A DNA stretch of 54,914 nt from Pseudomonadota bacterium (GTDB taxonomy: Bacteria; Bdellovibrionota_C; UBA2361; OMII01), in the NCBI GenBank assembly GCA_027485595.1, contig JAIXQT010000048.1:1-54914 (forward strand), read 5' to 3'. Under the pieces are notes generated by a model. The model worked only from the letters and a program-made list of their open reading frames with translations, was not told the DNA's origin and did not search any database. The position numbers and the translations under genes were made by a program. Positions 37,072 to 43,116 of this stretch are shown piece by piece (position 1 is the stretch's first letter; each line of letters begins with the position of its first letter).

Positions 37072-37539
37072 ATGAAATCGCAAGAATTGATAGCGCTCCT
37101 CGAGGCAACTTTCACTGAAAGATCGTTGGGCGATGGCATGTCGCAGAGGCGAGCGCACGAAATTGACGACCTGCGAATTCCCTTTGCTCCAGGCTTCACA
37201 CGGACTGAAGACGATATTACCGATGACTGGCGGAGAGTATCCGCCGTAGATCCATCCTGCTTTTATGATTATGACGACAAAGGCTGGAGATATTACCTTC
37301 CCGCCGCTTTGCGAAATTACCTATTGGCAGGAGAAGACAGCTTAGACCACGATCTGAAATTCTTATTATTGCCGGAAGAGAGCGAGTGGTCACCAAACGA
37401 TTTTGTAGAGAGAGTCGGCTTAAATGATACTCAAGCAAAATGTATTGCCAGAATCCTTCAGCATTTTAGCTCGGATTTAGATGAGAAGGAGCAGCAGCAA
37501 TTGGCAAAATGGATTGAAGCCTATGGAAAGGACGTATAA
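37072..37539 (+). CDS. Gene cassette, DUF6714-like hypothetical protein
   Basis: LGDGMS..AHEIDD, YDDKGWRYYLPA motifs; the TAA stop forms part of the attC inverse core. Confidence 0.65.
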   Translation: MKSQELIALLEATFTERSLGDGMSQRRAHEIDDLRIPFAPGFTRTEDDITDDWRRVSAVDPSCFYDYDDKGWRYYLPAALRNYLLAGEDSLDHDLKFLLLPEESEWSPNDFVERVGLNDTQAKCIARILQHFSSDLDEKEQQQLAKWIEAYGKDV

Positions 37540-37618
37540 CCAACACTAGCTGCGGAGCGGACAAGCAGCTAAACTTAATTGGAGTGGCGGCGACCGCTCG
37601 CAGTAGTGAACATTAAGG
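37534..37618 (+). mobile_element. attC site 1 (core degenerate, ATTAAGG)
   Basis: GTATAAC-caaca-CTAGCTGCGGAGCGG...CCGCTCGCAGTAG imperfect inverted repeat; same type as 40650-40734. Confidence 0.65.
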
Positions 37619-37725
37619 ACGGCATTCTTGCGGTGCGTTAGGTGGCATGAACGTGGCATGCCCAAGACGTACCTGGAGTTACAAGTACAAAGTTAATTAA
37701 GGCCTTCCGCTTGCGGCCCTAATCG

Positions 37726-37923
37726 TCATGCTGCAACCGTCTCGTAGGAAAAGTCTAGCTTACCCTCGGCTTGCTTGGCGTGCTCGATAGTCAATCCGAC
37801 TACCTTACCGTCTTTATCGAGCTCTAGGAGCACGTTGTCGTTTAGCTCCTCAGTTTGAGCAGGCTCTCTATCGCTTAATTCTATATAAAGAGTATCTGTG
37901 TCCTCGAAATATCTGACTTTCAT
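37726..37923 (-). CDS. DUF2283 (YuzE-like) putative antitoxin
   Basis: MKVRYFEDTDTLYIEL...LELDKDGKVVGLTIEHA. Confidence 0.85.
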   Translation of the reverse strand: MKVRYFEDTDTLYIELSDREPAQTEELNDNVLLELDKDGKVVGLTIEHAKQAEGKLDFSYETVAA

Positions 37924-37928
37924 GCATC

Positions 37929-38165
37929 CTACTCCTTAAACTTTCGGTCGAAAAACGCGTTATGAACGGTTTCGCCGTCCTCTAGAAGAACAACTCTGAG
38001 ATATCTGTTCTCAGCTTCATGCACCTTGCCCCATAGTCTTATTCTACCATCATCCTGAGTTACTCTTCTACTTGGATTTCTCATAACCTCTCGAATCCAC
38101 TCATCTTGAATGGCTTCACGGTCAGGAAGGGAGCGGCGAAATTGGAAGTATTTAGTTGCTTTCAT
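37929..38165 (-). CDS. DUF4258-like putative toxin (RelE/BrnT-like), paired with DUF2283
   Basis: EWIREVMRNP..QDDGRIRLWG..RYLRVVLLEDGETVHNAFFDR; 5 bp from its partner. Confidence 0.75.
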   Translation of the reverse strand: MKATKYFQFRRSLPDREAIQDEWIREVMRNPSRRVTQDDGRIRLWGKVHEAENRYLRVVLLEDGETVHNAFFDRKFKE

Positions 38166-38206
38166 TGGACTTTCAGGGCAGCTTTTTCAATATGTTAGCA
38201 GCCGAT

Positions 38207-38300
38207 GCATAACAAATAACTCCACCAGATTGTCGCGCATGCATTACATCATGGTATGAGCTACGGTCAGCTGCGACAACCGGTGATTTGGACGTTATTC
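38207..38300 (+). mobile_element. attC site 2
   Basis: GCATAAC...GTTATTC cores; arms CTCCACCAGATTGTCGC / GCGACAACCGGTGAT with extra bases in the left arm. Confidence 0.8.
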
Positions 38301-38301
38301 C

Positions 38302-38820
38302 CTAGAAGCCGATCCTCCTTTTCTTCTGTTCAGTCGGCTTCTCAAGTTGTGCGATTAGAAATCGAATCTCTTGCAACTCCTGCTCGTGCTCCGCGAACCC
38401 CTGGGCGAGTCGTTTCTCGATGTCTTGCAGTTGCCGCTTTAGCTCTCCGTGTTCGGCAAGCATCGTCCTCATACGAATAAAGGTGCGTACGACGATAATA
38501 CTCGCATGAATCGCGACCTTGCTGCTTAGCACGTTAGCGGCCATGACGGCGCCGTGCTCGGTGAACACATACGGTCGATAACGACGCCCTCCTTTCGGCC
38601 CATTTGAGGTCGCAATTTGCGACCTCAAACTCGCAACTTCTTGAAAGTCCAGTTGAAACATAAAGTCGTCAGGGAAGCGATCACGGTTTCGCTTAACCTG
38701 CTCATTCAGCCGCTTTGTTGAGGCCCCATACAGTCGAGCAAGGTCTTGGTCGAGAATCACCCGCTGTCCTCGAATGGTGAAGATGGTGCCCTCAATACTG
38801 GTGAATGTGTCTTGTTCCAT
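38302..38820 (-). CDS. ORF6N domain DNA-binding protein, copy 1 (intact), antisense cassette
   Basis: IRGQRVILDQDLARLYG..TKRLNEQVKRN.DRFPDDFMFQL, PYVFTEHGAVMAA; C-terminal coiled coil ending KKRRIGF. Confidence 0.9.
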   Translation of the reverse strand: MEQDTFTSIEGTIFTIRGQRVILDQDLARLYGASTKRLNEQVKRNRDRFPDDFMFQLDFQEVASLRSQIATSNGPKGGRRYRPYVFTEHGAVMAANVLSSKVAIHASIIVVRTFIRMRTMLAEHGELKRQLQDIEKRLAQGFAEHEQELQEIRFLIAQLEKPTEQKKRRIGF

Positions 38821-38870
38821 GGAGGTCTACTCGAAAGTGCGCAGTGGAAGTTGCGTGGTCGCGGACAAAG

Positions 38871-38926
38871 GGATAACAATTAAAGCCAGCGCAGCGCTCT
38901 GGGCCCGCTGCTTATCACCGTTATCC
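38871..38926 (+). mobile_element. attC site 3 (short, 56 bp)
   Basis: GGATAAC-aatta-AAGCCAGCG...CGCTGCTT-atcacc-GTTATCC; one extra C in the left arm. Confidence 0.8.
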
Positions 38927-39478
38927 TTTTCTACCGAATCCAATCGGTTTTTTTGAACTTGGCGGCGGTAGATCCATCAGTTATTGAATCGCAAAGCGGA
39001 CAGCTTGTAGTTCATCCTCAGTATCGTGAAATCCTCGAGCGACTCGCTCCTCCAGTCGTTCTAGTCGCAATTTCAACTCGCGATGTTCAGAGATAATCTC
39101 GCGAGCGTGAATGAAAGCTCTGACAACTAGGATGCTTGTCTCGATTGCAACCCTACTATTAAGGACCGTCGCGGCCATAATCGCCCCGTGCTCTGTAAAA
39201 ACAAGCGGTAAGATACCCGAAAATTTGAGCTTTTGAAGGTGGTCGCACTTTGCGACCACCTCGTCCGTTTTGGCTTTCGTTAATTGCAGGACGAAGTCAG
39301 TTGGAAAGCGCTCACTATTTCGCCTCACCTGCTCTTTGAGACGTTTTGTCTTTACGCCGTAAAGCTCCGCCAAATCTGAGTCAATTATTACTCTATGCCC
39401 ACGAATCAGCATGATATGTGGGCGGGCGGCTTAATGGCTTTGTTGAACAATCTGATTTTGTGCTTTTGGTTTGTTCAT
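38921..39478 (-). pseudogene. ORF6N domain gene copy 2; in-frame TAA at 38981-38983 and 39431-39433 (open segment 38981..39412)
   Basis: Reading past the 38981 stop gives LMDLPPPSSKKPIGFGRKG*, matching copy 3 (CAA there, TAA here); in-frame ATG at 39478. Confidence 0.75.
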
Positions 39479-39930
39479 ATCTCTGTGGGGCTTCGTCCGG
39501 TTTTGAATATCTGGCGGTCAGTCGCGCTAGAGGGGGCACGTCTGGCATGACTGCGAAAATTTCAGGCACGCTCATATCTCAGGGATGCCGCGTGCCATCG
39601 AAGCAGTGGAATCGGCGGATCCTGAGAAGATACCGGTTCTCGGTTGTGTGGCTAAGTTGCCGCAATCGAATCACCAATCTAACAAAATCAAATAACACCT
39701 TAGGCGGCTGTGTTGAGCCCATGCCTATATATCGATGTCTCTCGAGAGAAGTTGCGGCTAGTACTTTCGGCCCTAGATGCGCGGATCGGCACAGCTACAT
39801 TGATTCGGTGTAGATACACAGGTCCTAAGATAAGGTCCTTTTCGCCTCTATCTCCCGATATTACTGATCAATCTTATAAGTTGAGCGGCAGAAGAGGGGG
39901 ATGATATTATTCGGAAGGTAGGTCGACCGT

Positions 39931-39971
39931 CCTAGATGGGCGGATCGGCACAATACTATGTTATGCATCAC
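39931..39971 (+). mobile_element. attI-like cassette entry site 2 (core GTTATGC at 39960-39966)
   Basis: GTTATGCATCAC is the exact 12-bp reverse complement of 40645-40656; CGGATCKGCACAATAC(C)TATGTTAT shared with site 1; 21/22 direct repeat at 39772-39793. Confidence 0.55.
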
Positions 39972-39979
39972 GAGGAGCC

Positions 39980-40648
39980 ATGAAGCATTTTGCCGCCCTA
40001 ATACTTGCAGCCGCTTTCCCGATCTCCGCGTTTGCCGGGTCCGGGTCGTACATCGTCATAGTGGGTCGCGGCACGCCGTCGGTGTCAGTTACCCAGCAAA
40101 TGTCGGCCGACTACGTCGGAATACCGGTTACGATCAGGGGCAGCGCTAAGGATGCAGCCAAGCGGCTCGACGACATCGTGCGGGCCAGATCAATGCTCGA
40201 AGATGCCGTCAAGAAGACTGGCACTCTGGAAGTGCAGTGGGTCAATAGTTCATTTTCGGCCGAAGCGGGCAGGTCTTTCAGTAAACTCTCGAGCTCGAGC
40301 TACGGGGCGGACTCGCAATCACAATTGTTTATCCTCGGTAAGGTATCCGAACCTTGCGGGACGCTACAGGTCGTCCGGAAAATCATTGCAGTGATTGCGG
40401 GAGTTCCACCCATTGATGATGTTGGTATTTCCACTGGAGAATCCTCTCTGGGTGTCGTGGATCCTGAGCAGTATCGCGGGAACTTAATTACTCTCATCAA
40501 TGAAGAGGCTGCTCGGTTGAAATCGGGATTTCGCGGCGTCGCGCAGATCGAAGTTTCCGGTCTCGAGGCTCCGATTGCTGTCGTGCAAAAGAATGACTGC
40601 GAAGTATCTCTCTTTCTTCCGTATCGACTCAGCCTGACGAAGGAGTGA
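39980..40648 (+). CDS. Gene cassette, secreted hypothetical protein (weak SIMPL-like resemblance)
   Basis: GAGGAG RBS; signal peptide ending AFA; bounded by a GTT core and an attC. Confidence 0.7.
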   Translation: MKHFAALILAAAFPISAFAGSGSYIVIVGRGTPSVSVTQQMSADYVGIPVTIRGSAKDAAKRLDDIVRARSMLEDAVKKTGTLEVQWVNSSFSAEAGRSFSKLSSSSYGADSQSQLFILGKVSEPCGTLQVVRKIIAVIAGVPPIDDVGISTGESSLGVVDPEQYRGNLITLINEEAARLKSGFRGVAQIEVSGLEAPIAVVQKNDCEVSLFLPYRLSLTKE

Positions 40649-40649
40649 T

Positions 40650-40734
40650 GCATAACAAACATTAGCTGCGGAGCGGTCCAGTAGCCGAGATGAATGAAAC
40701 CGCGGTGGCCGCCCGCAGTAATTAAACGTTATGC
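40650..40734 (+). mobile_element. attC site 4
   Basis: GCATAAC-aaaca-TTAGCTGCGGAGCGG...CCGCCCGCAGTAA-ttaaac-GTTATGC; perfect complementary cores and two extra bases in the left arm. Confidence 0.88.
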
Positions 40735-41132
40735 TTTTATAACGAATCCAATCGGTTTTTTTGAACTTGGCGGCGGTAGATCCATCAGTTGTTGAATAGC
40801 AAAGCGAACAGCTCGTAGTTCATCCTCAGTATCGTGAAATCCTCGTGCCACTCGATCCTCCAGTCGTTCTAATCGCAACTTCAACTCACGGTGTTCAGAG
40901 ATTATCTCTCGAGCGTGAATGAAAGCTCTTACAACCAGAATGCTTGTCTCAATCGCCACTCGACTGTTCAGAACGGTTGCGGCCATGATAGCTCCGTGTT
41001 CCGTAAAAGCGAGCGGTAAGGTGCCTGAAAATTTGAGCTTGCGGAGGTGGTCGCAAATTGCGACCACCTCGTCCATTTCAGCTTTCGTCAATTCCAAGAC
41101 GAAATCGGCCGGAAAACGCTCACTATTTCGTT
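40729..41132 (-). pseudogene. ORF6N domain gene copy 3, 5'-truncated
   Basis: Closely similar to copy 2 from RNSERFPADFVL onward; homology stops abruptly at about 41132. Confidence 0.8.
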
Positions 41133-41464
41133 GTTCTGGATCCGAGCAGAAAAATGCCGCAGCCGCTGAGGCACTTGGTATTACAGCTCAAGCATATTCC
41201 AGTAACAGAAAATGCCCTTTTTGTGCCGAGTACGTTAAAGCAGAGGCGCGCGTATGTAGATTTTGTCAGAAAGACCTCCCTCGATTAGATGCATCGAGGA
41301 GTGAGCTCTCCGAAATACGGACCGACATGGATCGGAATCAGGCTCATGCCGATGAGCAGAAACCACTCTTAGATCGACTTGGTGTAGAGCAGAGAGACGG
41401 ATTGTTCTATTACCACGGCAAAGGCTACCACAGTTTATCCGACATCCCATTTGGCAAGAAATAA
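41133..41464 (+). pseudogene. 3' fragment of a zinc-ribbon (UPF0547-like) protein gene
   Basis: RKCPFCAEYVKAEARVCRFCQKDL; no independent 5' end, fused back-to-back to truncated ORF6N copy 3. Confidence 0.65.
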
Positions 41465-41474
41465 TGGGGACGCA

Positions 41475-41963
41475 CTAAAATCCGATCCTTCTCTTGGGTG
41501 GCACCGGTGTCGCTTCGCTCATTAGCTGCCGGGTCGCGTCGAAAACGACCTTGAATTGCGCATCATAGTTTTGCTCGAGACGGTTCAATCGGCCGGTCAA
41601 CTCTGCATTTGAGGCGACAAGTTGTCGAAGTTTGACAAATGCTCTTATGACTTGGATGTTTATCTCGACTGCACGCTCGCTCCGCAGCACACTTGAGAGC
41701 ATAGCGACGCCATGTTCGGTGAATGCGTACGGGGCTGTTCGCCGTCATCCTCGCCCCTTTGAGGTCACAATTTGTGACCTCAAAGCTGTAAACTCCTGAA
41801 AGGATAACTGAAACATAAAATCAGGGGGAAATCGCTTAATGTTTCGTTGAACAGCTTGGACGAGGGCCTTGGTCTCAACTTAATAGAGCGCTGCTAGATC
41901 TTGATCCAGCATCACCCGCTCCTCTCGGATAATTTAAATGAGAGATTCAATTCGATCGGTCAC
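41475..41963 (-). pseudogene. ORF6N domain gene copy 4 with three in-frame stop codons
   Basis: From GTG 41963 (GGAG RBS): [51 protein letters not shown]...[24 protein letters not shown]...PKRRIGF; 489 nt, frame intact. Confidence 0.85.
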
Positions 41964-42019
41964 GGTAGCTTCTCCAAATAATGGAGATATCGGGAGATCT
42001 ACGAAAATGTTTCGTCATA

Positions 42020-42070
42020 GGCTAACAAGGGTATCAAGCGGAGGCGAGAACGCCCCGGTCATGCCCCCTG
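42020..42070 (+). mobile_element. Degenerate attC (left half intact, core lost)
   Basis: GGCTAAC-aaggg-TATCAAGCGG is a typical left end; right side CCGGTCATGCCCC lacks GTT. Confidence 0.4.
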
Positions 42071-42210
42071 GCACACCCTACTTTTTGAGGATAGGCGATC
42101 CGATAAAGTAGGGTGCACCAAAGGCCTTGGGGATTTTTAGTTTGAGGTTCGTGTACGGTCACGTTCTCGAGCACGTTAACGAGGGAGAATAGGAGGTTTG
42201 CCTCGCGTCC

Positions 42211-43116
42211 CTAGGTCTCCACAACCCGAGTAACGATACCACATATCCTGTTCTCCTTGGATTCTCCGAGAATCAAGAGATCCTGGTCGATCTCTCCAAA
42301 GGTGTAGGCCCGTATCGACGTAAGGTTCTCCTGAAGGACGCGACGGAGTGTATCAAAGCGCTTTGCACGCGCGCGCTCTGCCGCGTCGCTATCCACTAAC
42401 GCCGTTGAGACCCACCCAAAGAGCTGATTTATCGACCTCACAGTGCTTGGCACCGCAGGTGGCTCCCCAAGTTGCCTCTGCATCTGCGCCTTGGTAAGGG
42501 GCCAGAGGCGAGTCTTTGTAAAACACACTACCTCTATCGGAAAATCAGACTCGCTCATCCACTGAAGCCCCTCGATAGCGGGGGAAATGGCCTTTACCAC
42601 TGGGATGTTTCCATAGTCAGGGATGCCCCGAGCTATCCAGCGCTCAACCGCGATCCTGGCATCAGAGGTGAGCGGCTCACGAGCAGCCCACAGGGATAGC
42701 TCATGGGCACGAACCGGATTCGGCTTAGAACCGAGTATGGAGAGCAAGAGACCAGCATCCCCTTCGGTCAATCTCTGGGCTCCGCGCATCTCACGCAGCC
42801 AAGCAGAGGTAAGGCGAAACGCCTCAACCCTACGCACGGGTATTGACTTAGCGCTCTCGGCATTCGTTGAGTTCGCGAGCCATAGATCGGCCGCTGATTG
42901 CGCCTCAGGGCTCAAGGAGCGGCGTGCCTTGAACAAAGCCGCGCGAGCGAACTCCGCTTCCTGCTTTGTCATCCCCGGGCCATCCACCTCAAAAGCCGCT
43001 AAGATGAGCTGCATCTCCCGCTTTGAGACCGTGCGTTCGACATCAAGACTCCCCGGAGAGCGCGCGAAGCTCAGCAGGAGTGAAAAGAGAGTAGTGACGG
43101 TGAATATGGTATTCAT
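42211..43116 (-). CDS. Secreted protein with C-terminal nuclease A inhibitor (NuiA)-like domain
   Basis: Hydrophobic N-terminus; EGLQWMSESDFPIEV, RFDTLRRVLQENL, GEIDQDLLILG and terminal GIVTRVVET match the NuiA pattern. Confidence 0.7.
   Translation of the reverse strand: MNTIFTVTTLFSLLLSFARSPGSLDVERTVSKREMQLILAAFEVDGPGMTKQEAEFARAALFKARRSLSPEAQSAADLWLANSTNAESAKSIPVRRVEAFRLTSAWLREMRGAQRLTEGDAGLLLSILGSKPNPVRAHELSLWAAREPLTSDARIAVERWIARGIPDYGNIPVVKAISPAIEGLQWMSESDFPIEVVCFTKTRLWPLTKAQMQRQLGEPPAVPSTVRSINQLFGWVSTALVDSDAAERARAKRFDTLRRVLQENLTSIRAYTFGEIDQDLLILGESKENRICGIVTRVVET

Follow-up and report, generated by a model that had tools for sequence, protein, structure and literature searches.

An intragenic palindrome conserved across ORF6N genes is a probable operator for the protein that each gene encodes

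The stretch of DNA analysed here (the window; 54,914 nucleotides, contig JAIXQT010000048.1 of assembly GCA_027485595.1 from a Pseudomonadota bacterium) contains an array of four genes of the ORF6N family (PF10543), each of which carries a long DNA palindrome inside its coding sequence (Table 1). Comparison with 160 relatives suggests that this palindrome is probably the cognate operator of the gene's own ORF6N product, where binding of the protein would serve autoregulation. An inverted-repeat search returned perfect arms in all four genes at exactly the coordinates given in a preliminary description of this DNA, and the reading frames also proved to be as described there, with LRSQI(A/V)TS encoded in copies 1 and 4 and VVA(K/I)CDHL in copies 2 and 3, where the GGTCRCA core is shifted by one base.

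Two samples of relatives were assembled using peptide patterns outside the palindrome. The genome sample (one genome per species) gave 596 confirmed relatives, of which the best 80 were kept, and the metagenome sample, taken from contigs with an alignment of the shifted-frame class (class B, see below), gave 80 further loci. Acidobacteriota, Planctomycetota, Bacteroidota, Omnitrophota, Elusimicrobiota, candidate-phyla-radiation bacteria and Proteobacteria are among the phyla represented in the genome sample. The family core reads (A/T)GGTCGCAA-N-TTGCGACC(T/A) and always lies between the FxFQL and FTEHG motifs. Watson-Crick pairs between the arms numbered 12 of 12 in 36 loci of the genome sample, 11 in 27, 10 in 14, 9 in two and 8 in one; the corresponding figures in the metagenome sample were 38 (12/12), 23 (11/12), 14 (10/12) and 4 (9/12), the remaining locus (L156) being without a dyad and the only one of the 160 genes to have lost it. 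At least ten pairs are present in 77/80 genome loci and 75/80 metagenome loci, and at least nine in 158/160 relatives. The family as a whole comprises 29,523 clusters at 50% identity with an E-value of 0.001 or below, and 15,392 at 1e-10 or below.

This symmetry exceeds what the encoded proteins impose. Perfect arms of at least 10 nt occur in 48/80 genes, compared with 0.19% of within-gene permutations of synonymous codons, and in 44/80 genes the observed arm was reached by none of 300 such permutations. Codon usage at the site is correspondingly skewed relative to other positions in these genes: Gln is encoded by CAA rather than CAG in a ratio of 72:3 (240:322 elsewhere), Ile by ATT in 38/38 cases (275/754 elsewhere), Phe by TTT in 28/28 (323/621), Leu by TTG in 54/63 (238/1196) and Arg by AGR in 48/51 (292/1188). 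It had been proposed from the four window genes that selection acts on the nucleic acid, the dyad being kept where the peptide is not. This holds across the family, as evidenced by the codon bias, by codons that track the opposite arm and by a reading of the site in two frames that is general among the relatives.

The 160 relatives fall into 85 genes of class A (LRSQIATS) and 75 of class B (EVVANCDHL); within the metagenome sample the shifted frame is used in 72/80 loci and the first frame in 8/80. The class B peptide, EV-V-ANCD-H-L, corresponds to the +1 reading of class A DNA (GAG GTC GCA AAT TGC GAC CTC, encoding EVANCDL) with three additional nucleotides per arm. Therefore, the two classes have the DNA in common and not the peptide. 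Compensatory changes in both arms, also part of the preliminary description, are clearly present, since synonymous codons of one arm match amino-acid replacements encoded by the other. In class A the Ser codon tracks the opposite Ala or Val codon, with 47 genes carrying (TCG, GCG), 21 carrying (TCA, GTG) and none carrying (TCG, GTG) or (TCA, GCG). In class B the Cys codon tracks Ala or Thr, with 53 cases of (GCA, TGC), 18 of (ACA, TGT) and two discordant cases (GCA, TGT), and the Asp codon tracks Val or Ile, with 63 cases of (GTC, GAC), six of (ATC, GAT) and one discordant case. With arm positions numbered outwards from the centre, the state of the ±4 pair changes at least 21 times on a protein tree built from the flanks only; in ten supported independent contrasts at ±4, the second arm followed the first in nine, changed the opposite way in none and was unchanged in one. 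The class label itself switches 21 times on the protein tree of the flanking parts, and the sequences suggest that the central segment may be exchanged as a module among family members. In a MAFFT alignment, the N-terminal identity between the classes is 0.66, equal to that within class A (0.66), and the N-terminal part of copy 1 shares 92% identity with a class B gene (L134).

The observation that most directly connects the palindrome with the encoded protein came from a covariation scan in which all protein columns except those of the central segment were compared with all arm positions. The ±4 pair covaried with residues 37, 40 and 41 (normalised mutual information 0.74, 0.71 and 0.38, respectively), ±5 with residue 40, and ±7 and ±8 with residue 36; the remaining protein columns in the scan were all at background. 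The same pairs were recovered separately in the 85 class A and the 75 class B genes. Arg-37 is accompanied by G·C at ±4 in 103 genes and a non-Arg residue (Val, Ala, Gln, Ser and others) by A·T in 40. Glu-40 is found with G·C (97 genes) and never with A·T, and Gln-40 is found with A·T in 40 genes and with G·C in six, five of which retain intact arm symmetry as TTGCAA sites with the helix sequence RLNQQ. Lys or Arg at position 40 occurs with C·G (TTCCAA or TGCCAA) in nine genes. At ±7, Lys-36 is found with G·C in 114 genes and Arg-36 with A·T in 13. With their i, i+1, i+4, i+5 spacing, residues 36, 37, 40 and 41 share a face of helix 35–44 in an AlphaFold2 (AF2) model, the second helix of a predicted helix-turn-helix (HTH). 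Arg and Lys usually prefer guanine, and the pairings seen here agree with that preference. The sequence of the site would thus match the specificity of the protein's predicted DNA-reading residues, a match that is statistical rather than biochemical. Because the arms covary with the HTH helix, the recognising factor is likely to be the gene's own product.

The associations at ±4 can be written as a rule in which Arg-37 goes with G·C and, in its absence, Gln-40 with A·T and Lys- or Arg-40 with C·G. This rule was correct in 32/32 hold-out genes (29 loci from the phylum of the window, picked by Pfam score alone) and fits 6/6 helix-bearing ORF6N copies of the genome to which the window belongs. 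When the helix and central columns were left out of the tree, a change in the same direction as the ±4 pair in the ten supported independent contrasts was scored 10 for residue 37, 9.8 for residue 40 (none opposite) and 7.3 for residue 41, compared with 2.4 for the best of 32 control columns, two of which (46 and 47) are situated between the helix and the palindrome.

Further palindromes of this type occur in front of the genes, in some loci as arrays of two to four. A generic scan of the 160 loci for family-type dyads gave 62 extra sites, compared with 1.8 expected from shuffles, and 41 of the 62, in 35/160 loci, lie 215–450 bp upstream of the intragenic site, which is roughly within 250 bp upstream of the start codon. 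A truncated upstream ORF6N fragment explains only three of these 41. A scan with a position weight matrix (PWM; at least 8 bits) located an upstream site in 44/154 loci, where shuffles predict 1.0 and the downstream control gave 7/142. In one locus (L056) two full palindromes of 25–27 bp are present, the last ending 16 nt before the ATG, and in another (L144) four palindromes are spaced at 38–43 bp, the last ending 8 nt before the ATG; L156, the gene without an internal dyad, still has an upstream site. All members carry the intragenic site about 200 nt after the start of the open reading frame (ORF), and some of the upstream copies abut the ribosome-binding site or the ATG. Judging by these positions, the sites are placed where they could interfere with transcription of their own gene.

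The pattern of mismatches bears on the nucleic acid that is recognised. Among 71 non-Watson-Crick pairs within ±13, 15 are G/T, 31 A/C and 25 of other kinds; G/T is not enriched, suggesting that the sense strand has no wobble tolerance. A scan of positions 38200–42100 against Rfam with E-values up to 1 gave no match, and position −1, the third base of the Gln codon, is A in 72/75 Gln codons although it cannot pair across the 1-nt centre. Taken together, the lack of wobble tolerance, the absence of an Rfam match and the fixed −1 base point to duplex DNA rather than folded RNA.

Mapping of the encoded segment on a predicted structure, as proposed in the preliminary description, placed the palindrome residues at the end of one helix (59–68) and the start of a low-confidence loop (69–83). 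The AF2 model of copy 1 (77-row alignment, mean confidence score (pLDDT) of 83) consists of a β-hairpin (13–23), the two HTH helices (24–31 and 35–44), a strand (54–56), the helix 59–68, the loop 69–83, in which residues 72–76 fall below a pLDDT of 50, a strand (84–86), a helix (88–98) and a long helix (101–160). Homodimer predictions for copy 1, the model of which has a 60-residue C-terminal helix, scored 0.71, 0.18 and 0.13 and favoured neither outcome. A Foldseek search of the PDB gave no match at an E-value of 0.001 or below, a sequence-profile search of the PDB returned coiled-coil noise only, and no family was matched in NCBIfam. VIA-align gave a best Z of 6.1, with pSK1 Par at 4.8 and the N-terminal DNA-binding domain of P1 ParA at 5.0, all below a meaningful level. 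As a side observation, in three loci (L053, L064 and L087) the palindrome peptide is repeated in frame within the loop, giving two or three copies, 11/150 best representatives of the family are split or duplicated at the palindrome point, and six inspected proteins (P0003, P0025, P0035, P0053, P0099 and P0115) contain repeats such as LRSQFATS...LRSQIATS. The repeated palindrome peptides are probably tandem intragenic operators.

The surroundings of the genes narrow the choice of a recognising factor. Conservation of the site across many phyla calls for a factor transferred together with the gene or, failing that, for some property common to all DNA. In 78 loci the longest neighbouring ORFs are unrelated housekeeping genes, the commonest neighbouring family occurring in 4/78 upstream and 3/78 downstream positions, which rules out a conserved operon partner and leaves the gene's own product as the only factor travelling with the site. 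No ParB- or Rep-type Pfam domains were found in the locus proteins, nor was a recurrent partner ATPase or helicase loader. Relatives are scarce among phages (10 of 50,697 records) and plasmids (25 of 72,556 records), and in the phylum of the window the ORF6N domain is present in 66/124 sampled genomes, with up to nine copies that are often in tandem. One copy elsewhere in this genome (on C155) lies inside a unit of about 600 bp that is 92% identical to a unit in another genome of the genus, where the context is different, and the upstream flank of the C155 copy is itself variable within the genus.

Combined with the covariation and the upstream sites, it can be proposed that two ORF6N subunits, acting as a putative dimer, read the two arms symmetrically, with the face of the second HTH helix (residues 36, 37, 40 and 41 in copy 1) contacting positions ±4 to ±8. 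Symmetric reading of this kind would explain why the arms change together and the helix changes along with them. The long C-terminal helix is probably a coiled coil and is followed by a basic ...RRIGF tail. The operator would sit in DNA that encodes a poorly ordered loop tolerant of whatever peptide the DNA imposes, and such tolerance may account for the existence of versions in two reading frames (LRSQIATS... and EVVANCDHL...). The most likely function is autogenous control of a gene that is solitary and moves by horizontal transfer; it would be exerted through an intragenic roadblock, which in about 29% of loci would be joined by one to four promoter-proximal palindromes acting by promoter occlusion or looping, and an operator located within the ORF would be inseparable from its regulator. 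The accessible text of a study of LacI bound at O3 provides a precedent for autoregulation by a roadblock (PMC3711431).

The rest of the genome is in several respects consistent with a site dedicated to this family. The assembly (3.57 Mb, 286 contigs) contains seven PF10543 matches, and the palindrome is present in 7/7. The three ORF6N genes outside the window have a perfect palindrome at the same codons, with arms GGTGCCAA-N-TTGGCACC, GATCACAA-N-TTGTGATC and GATCCCAA-N-TTGGGATC, of which the inner arms differ and stay complementary. The four intact copies in the genome share a mutual protein identity of only 47–48%. Among 39 perfect palindromes genome-wide (arms of at least 11 nt, loop of 3 nt or less), seven are ORF6N sites; no further perfect copies of the palindrome were found elsewhere in the genome, and the genome-wide PWM scan gave no match above 14.8 bits besides the seven ORF6N sites. 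A different element was noted in the course of these scans, a repeat of about 115 nt that contains internal hairpins, has conserved ends (AAAAACCGGAGG...CACCACCCTGCTA) and is dispersed over at least 28 places (for example C133:22802, C152:8102 and C67:8104), several copies of which hold a perfect palindrome, TTGGCTCCAAC-N3-GTTGGAGCCAA, with arms of 11–13 nt. It looks like a miniature inverted-repeat transposable element (MITE) or an element of the repetitive extragenic palindromic type.

A number of points weigh against an autoregulatory operator. An intragenic roadblock alone usually gives weak repression, and most loci would depend on one, given that 110/154 have no detected upstream site; the PWM scan also found no upstream palindromes at the ORF6N genes of this genome. 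Nor are upstream and intragenic sites strictly cognate, the ±4 pair agreeing in 23 of 34 clear cases and differing in 11. All hold-out genes belong to a single phylum, many of them to a single genus, and hence are not independent, and the contrast tree is a FastTree of a short alignment that provides only ten independent pairs on supported branches. Only about 80 nt separate the helix codons from the palindrome in a family that looks mosaic, so that co-inheritance as a block could inflate the association, although the low values of the intervening control columns 46 and 47 argue against this. The assignment of a predicted recognition helix derives from secondary structure and periodicity instead of a solved homologue, and the best Foldseek match, a Dachshund/Ski DHD winged-helix-like fold, is weak (E-value 0.025). 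The case for the operator is made of sequence statistics and one AF2 model. Finally, according to the accessible parts of the template-switching literature, switching between arms during replication can keep palindromes perfect without selection, and this process may contribute to the arm symmetry.

Taken as the whole explanation, the last process would reduce the site to a functionless old quasi-palindrome that is kept perfect by arm-to-arm template switching and tolerated because it encodes a loop, which appears highly improbable. Correction of imperfect inverted repeats to perfect ones, with multi-base compensatory changes, is described in the consulted portions of two reports (PMC5941160, PMC8794818), and the persistence of the palindrome in pseudogene copy 4 and truncated copy 3, as well as the low confidence of the encoded segment in the AF2 model, would fit such a process. 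However, template switching maintains complementarity and not sequence, yet the core is common to two frame classes and many phyla; it explains neither the covariation with the helix nor the non-coding copies upstream, and it offers no reason why 7/39 long perfect palindromes of this genome fall in one family or why only 1/160 genes has lost the palindrome. Quite unlikely as well, in our assessment, is a role as a folded structure, whether a hairpin or cruciform in DNA or a stem-loop in mRNA, that would act in recombination or mobilisation of the cassette of about 600 bp, in shuffling of N- and C-terminal halves or in mRNA processing. The perfect arms with their compensatory changes and AT-rich centre, the representatives split or duplicated at the site, the frequency of tandem arrays, the C155 unit in its different context and the repeated changes of class label would all be in keeping with it, as would truncated copies that break near the palindrome. 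Pairing alone, however, predicts no covariation with amino acids encoded 80 nt upstream and leaves the arrays in front of start codons unexplained; the mismatches show no G·U tolerance, there is no Rfam family and the −1 base is fixed despite being unpairable. Hairpin formation and template switching, first suggested by arm symmetry that persists at variable positions, were dropped as the principal explanation once the helix covariation and the upstream sites had been found. The preliminary description had left three mechanisms side by side, namely an operator within the gene of its own DNA-binding protein, a hairpin or cruciform signal for recombination or mobilisation, and a site of template switching; the own-gene operator is now favoured, and the other two, which account for neither the helix covariation nor the upstream copies, may still occur as side effects.

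The breakpoints themselves deserve separate mention. Inversions or breakpoints at the dyad centre, suggested in the preliminary description as a sign of recombination, did not appear in contigs of four freshwater/lake metagenome runs. In several runs the ends or overlaps of Logan unitigs coincide exactly with the palindromes (38602–38631 and 41755–41813), which is taken for an effect of perfect dyads on de Bruijn-graph assembly and not for biology. In the phylum sample four truncated ORF6N copies stop just before the palindrome, at residues 56–65, and two independent remnants (L211 on G045:C40 and L217 on G121:C315) carry deletions from the 3' edge of the palindrome to before the codons of the C-terminal K(R/K)xxGF; because truncated copies were picked for a partial domain match, this clustering is biased and serves as a lead rather than an unbiased count. 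A further locus (L216, G023:C59, ~265–395) has a 128-nt insertion 15 nt after the palindrome, inside the codons of the GRGG loop, which is MITE-like in having terminal inverted repeats (CAATGTCATTAA...TTAATGACATTG). The palindrome site looks fragile.

A third alternative accepts that the palindrome is the binding site of the gene's own product and assigns it a non-regulatory role, such as a cis-acting nucleation, centromere-like or origin-like site, or a place where a defence protein stays docked until infection, comparable to parS in spo0J or ori-lambda in gene O. This appears unlikely, though it draws on the same helix covariation and upstream arrays as the operator and on the fact that the only strong sites in this genome are the ORF6N genes themselves. 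Paralogues of one genome carry different site variants, reminiscent of incompatibility or immunity groups, and copies 1 and 2 match three PADLOC profiles of the defence candidate PDC-S05 (E-values of 2.3e-52, 2.4e-50 and 2.2e-35 for copy 1). In the accessible part of a preprint, a PDC-S05 representative described with a Virulence_RhuM domain lowered the plating of T7 and T5 about 1000-fold in E. coli B (bioRxiv 10.1101/2024.09.26.614923). However, PDC-S05 is a candidate by genomic association, the tested representative bears RhuM, a domain not found in copy 1, and it may belong to another subfamily. Furthermore, the ORF6N genes are solitary chromosomal genes among housekeeping genes and rare on plasmids and phages, no ParB, Rep or ATPase partner was found at the locus, and upstream arrays that abut the start codon resemble classical repression sites.

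The palindrome also distinguishes a subfamily. An antirepressor of Lactococcus phage 98101 has an ORF6N N-terminus (27% identical) but no in-gene palindrome with arms of at least 7 nt, suggesting that the palindrome marks the solitary proteins with ORF6N domain, long helix and RRIGF tail and not the whole Pfam family. The palindrome is not mentioned in the consulted portions of the literature on ORF6N and PDC-S05, and a literature search on coding-sequence palindromes of KilA-N genes gave nothing.

Intragenic auxiliary operators are well known from lac O2 in lacZ, lac O3 at the end of lacI and gal OI in galE. The proposed ORF6N operator resembles them as a palindromic site for an HTH repressor (dimer or tetramer there) within a transcribed coding sequence, in some cases accompanied by a promoter-proximal site at a distance of a few hundred bp (215–450 bp in ORF6N loci). 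Unlike them, it has a universal intragenic site (158/160) and an optional promoter site (44/154), lies in the middle of the repressor's own gene, belongs to an ORF6N fold and not to LacI/GalR, is conserved over phyla and two frames, and dictates a protein motif. Cis-acting sites inside the gene of their binder are likewise known, including parS in spo0J/parB, the ori-lambda iterons in gene O and the pT181 origin in repC; in lambda O the DNA bearing the site encodes an inter-domain linker, to which the low-confidence loop of ORF6N may be likened. In these systems, as in ORF6N, a DNA-binding protein and a dyad-symmetric site are inseparable and specificities diverge among relatives. In contrast to them, the chromosomal and solitary ORF6N genes lack neighbouring machinery for replication or partition, gave no match to ParB or Rep domains, and have a single site in place of an iteron array with an AT-rich region. 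Coding palindromes attributed to template switching share perfect inverted repeats that overlap coding sequence and arms that co-evolve; in the accessible parts of those reports they are mutational or lineage-specific, whereas the ORF6N repeat is short (23–33 bp), spans a family of about 15,000 clusters and covaries with a helix (PMC6649704, PMC5941160, PMC8794818). As an operator, the ORF6N palindrome is unusual in being universal within the regulator's ORF, surviving a change of frame, dictating a family motif and following a simple predictive code.

Table 1 ORF6N genes of the window and their palindromes (PWM scores in bits)
Feature	Position	Strand	Description
ORF6N copy 1	38302-38820	-	Class A frame; intact, 172 aa; PF10543 E-value 9.6e-36, 122.4 bits; N-terminal HTH-like domain, long C-terminal helix, KKRRIGF tail
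Copy 1 palindrome	38603-38629	strandless	TTTGAGGTCGCAA-N-TTGCGACCTCAAA; perfect 13-nt arms 38603-38615 / 38617-38629, 1-nt centre; encodes residues ~64-72 (S-LRSQIATS); PWM 30.4, among the top scores of the genome
Copy 1 codons for residues 35-45	38686-38718	-	TKRLNEQVKRN; predicted recognition helix (AF2 helix 35-44)
ORF6N copy 2	38981-39412	-	Class B, 143 aa; PF10543 E-value 1.1e-25, 90.2 bits
Copy 2 palindrome	39237-39261	strandless	AGGTGGTCGCA-NNN-TGCGACCACCT; perfect 11-nt arms 39237-39247 / 39251-39261, 3-nt centre; frame one base off copy 1 (EVVAKCDHL); PWM 22.9
ORF6N copy 3	40729-41133	-	Class B; N-terminally truncated, positions 33-86 of the domain profile only
Copy 3 palindrome	41044-41070	strandless	GAGGTGGTCGCAA-N-TTGCGACCACCTC; perfect 13-nt arms 41044-41056 / 41058-41070 within a longer 28-nt, 75% repeat; encodes EVVAICDHL; PWM 31.6
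ORF6N copy 4	~41475-41960	-	Class A pseudogene; one TGA and two TAA in frame inside the domain match
Copy 4 palindrome	41757-41785	strandless	CTTTGAGGTCACAA-N-TTGTGACCTCAAAG; perfect 14-nt arms 41757-41770 / 41772-41785; A·T variant at ±4; PWM 27.8

The four copies of the window are in different states of preservation. Copy 2 lacks the C-terminal IGF tail, a stop codon replacing a Gln that is present in copy 3, and copy 3 keeps the full C-terminal tail and has lost the recognition helix. Against PF10543, copy 3 scores 21 bits when taken as an ORF and 41.2 bits in the genome-wide search, and copy 4 scores 115.7 bits with its stops read through, the curated Pfam gathering cut-off being 27.8 bits. 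An imperfect 25-nt inverted repeat (38867–38930, 72% complementary, 14-nt spacer) lies in the interval that separates the end of copy 2 from the start of copy 1; it differs in type from the family palindrome and may be a terminator or the site of another protein. In contigs of two other freshwater/lake runs (X3 and X5), window positions 39964–41475, which contain a 222-aa secreted-looking ORF (39980–40648), ORF6N copy 3 and a zinc-ribbon ORF (40919–41464), are replaced by 841 other letters, indicating that the middle of the array is variable among populations. The flanks of the array (37072–38165 and 42211–43116) encode a DUF6714 protein (37072–37539), a DUF2283 protein (37726–37923) beside a 78-aa ORF that matches no family, and a 301-aa protein with a C-terminal domain like the NuiA nuclease inhibitor. 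Together with these small accessory genes, the ORF6N array looks like a small accessory-gene island.

A wider picture, which we put forward tentatively, is that these genes may be portable cassettes of a gene and its internal operator, in which the operator writes part of the protein in either frame, perhaps a loop adjacent to the DNA. An evolvable code, in which Arg-37 or Lys/Arg-40 would go with guanine, Glu-40 with cytosine, and Val/Ala-37 together with Gln-40 with A·T, would give rise to orthogonal paralogues, and the palindrome might in addition be a breakpoint hotspot that shuffles N- and C-terminal modules and makes tandem arrays in a widespread family of candidate anti-phage genes.

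If the palindrome is indeed the operator of its own gene, a peptide motif recognised at the level of Pfam (LRSQIxTS or VVANCDHL) would be imposed by a DNA signal and not by protein function, which calls for caution in the annotation of motifs. The pairing of helix residues with arm bases would constitute a testable amino-acid-to-base code, with natural orthogonal variants of a protein of about 170 aa and a 27-bp site, of use for studies of specificity evolution and as compact regulator-operator parts. A DNA target would also provide the first experimental handle on the PDC-S05 defence candidate, for which the accessible ORF6N and PDC-S05 literature offers no mechanism. Finally, the combination of a universal internal operator with an optional promoter operator would raise the question of how mobile single genes secure control that is independent of their context.

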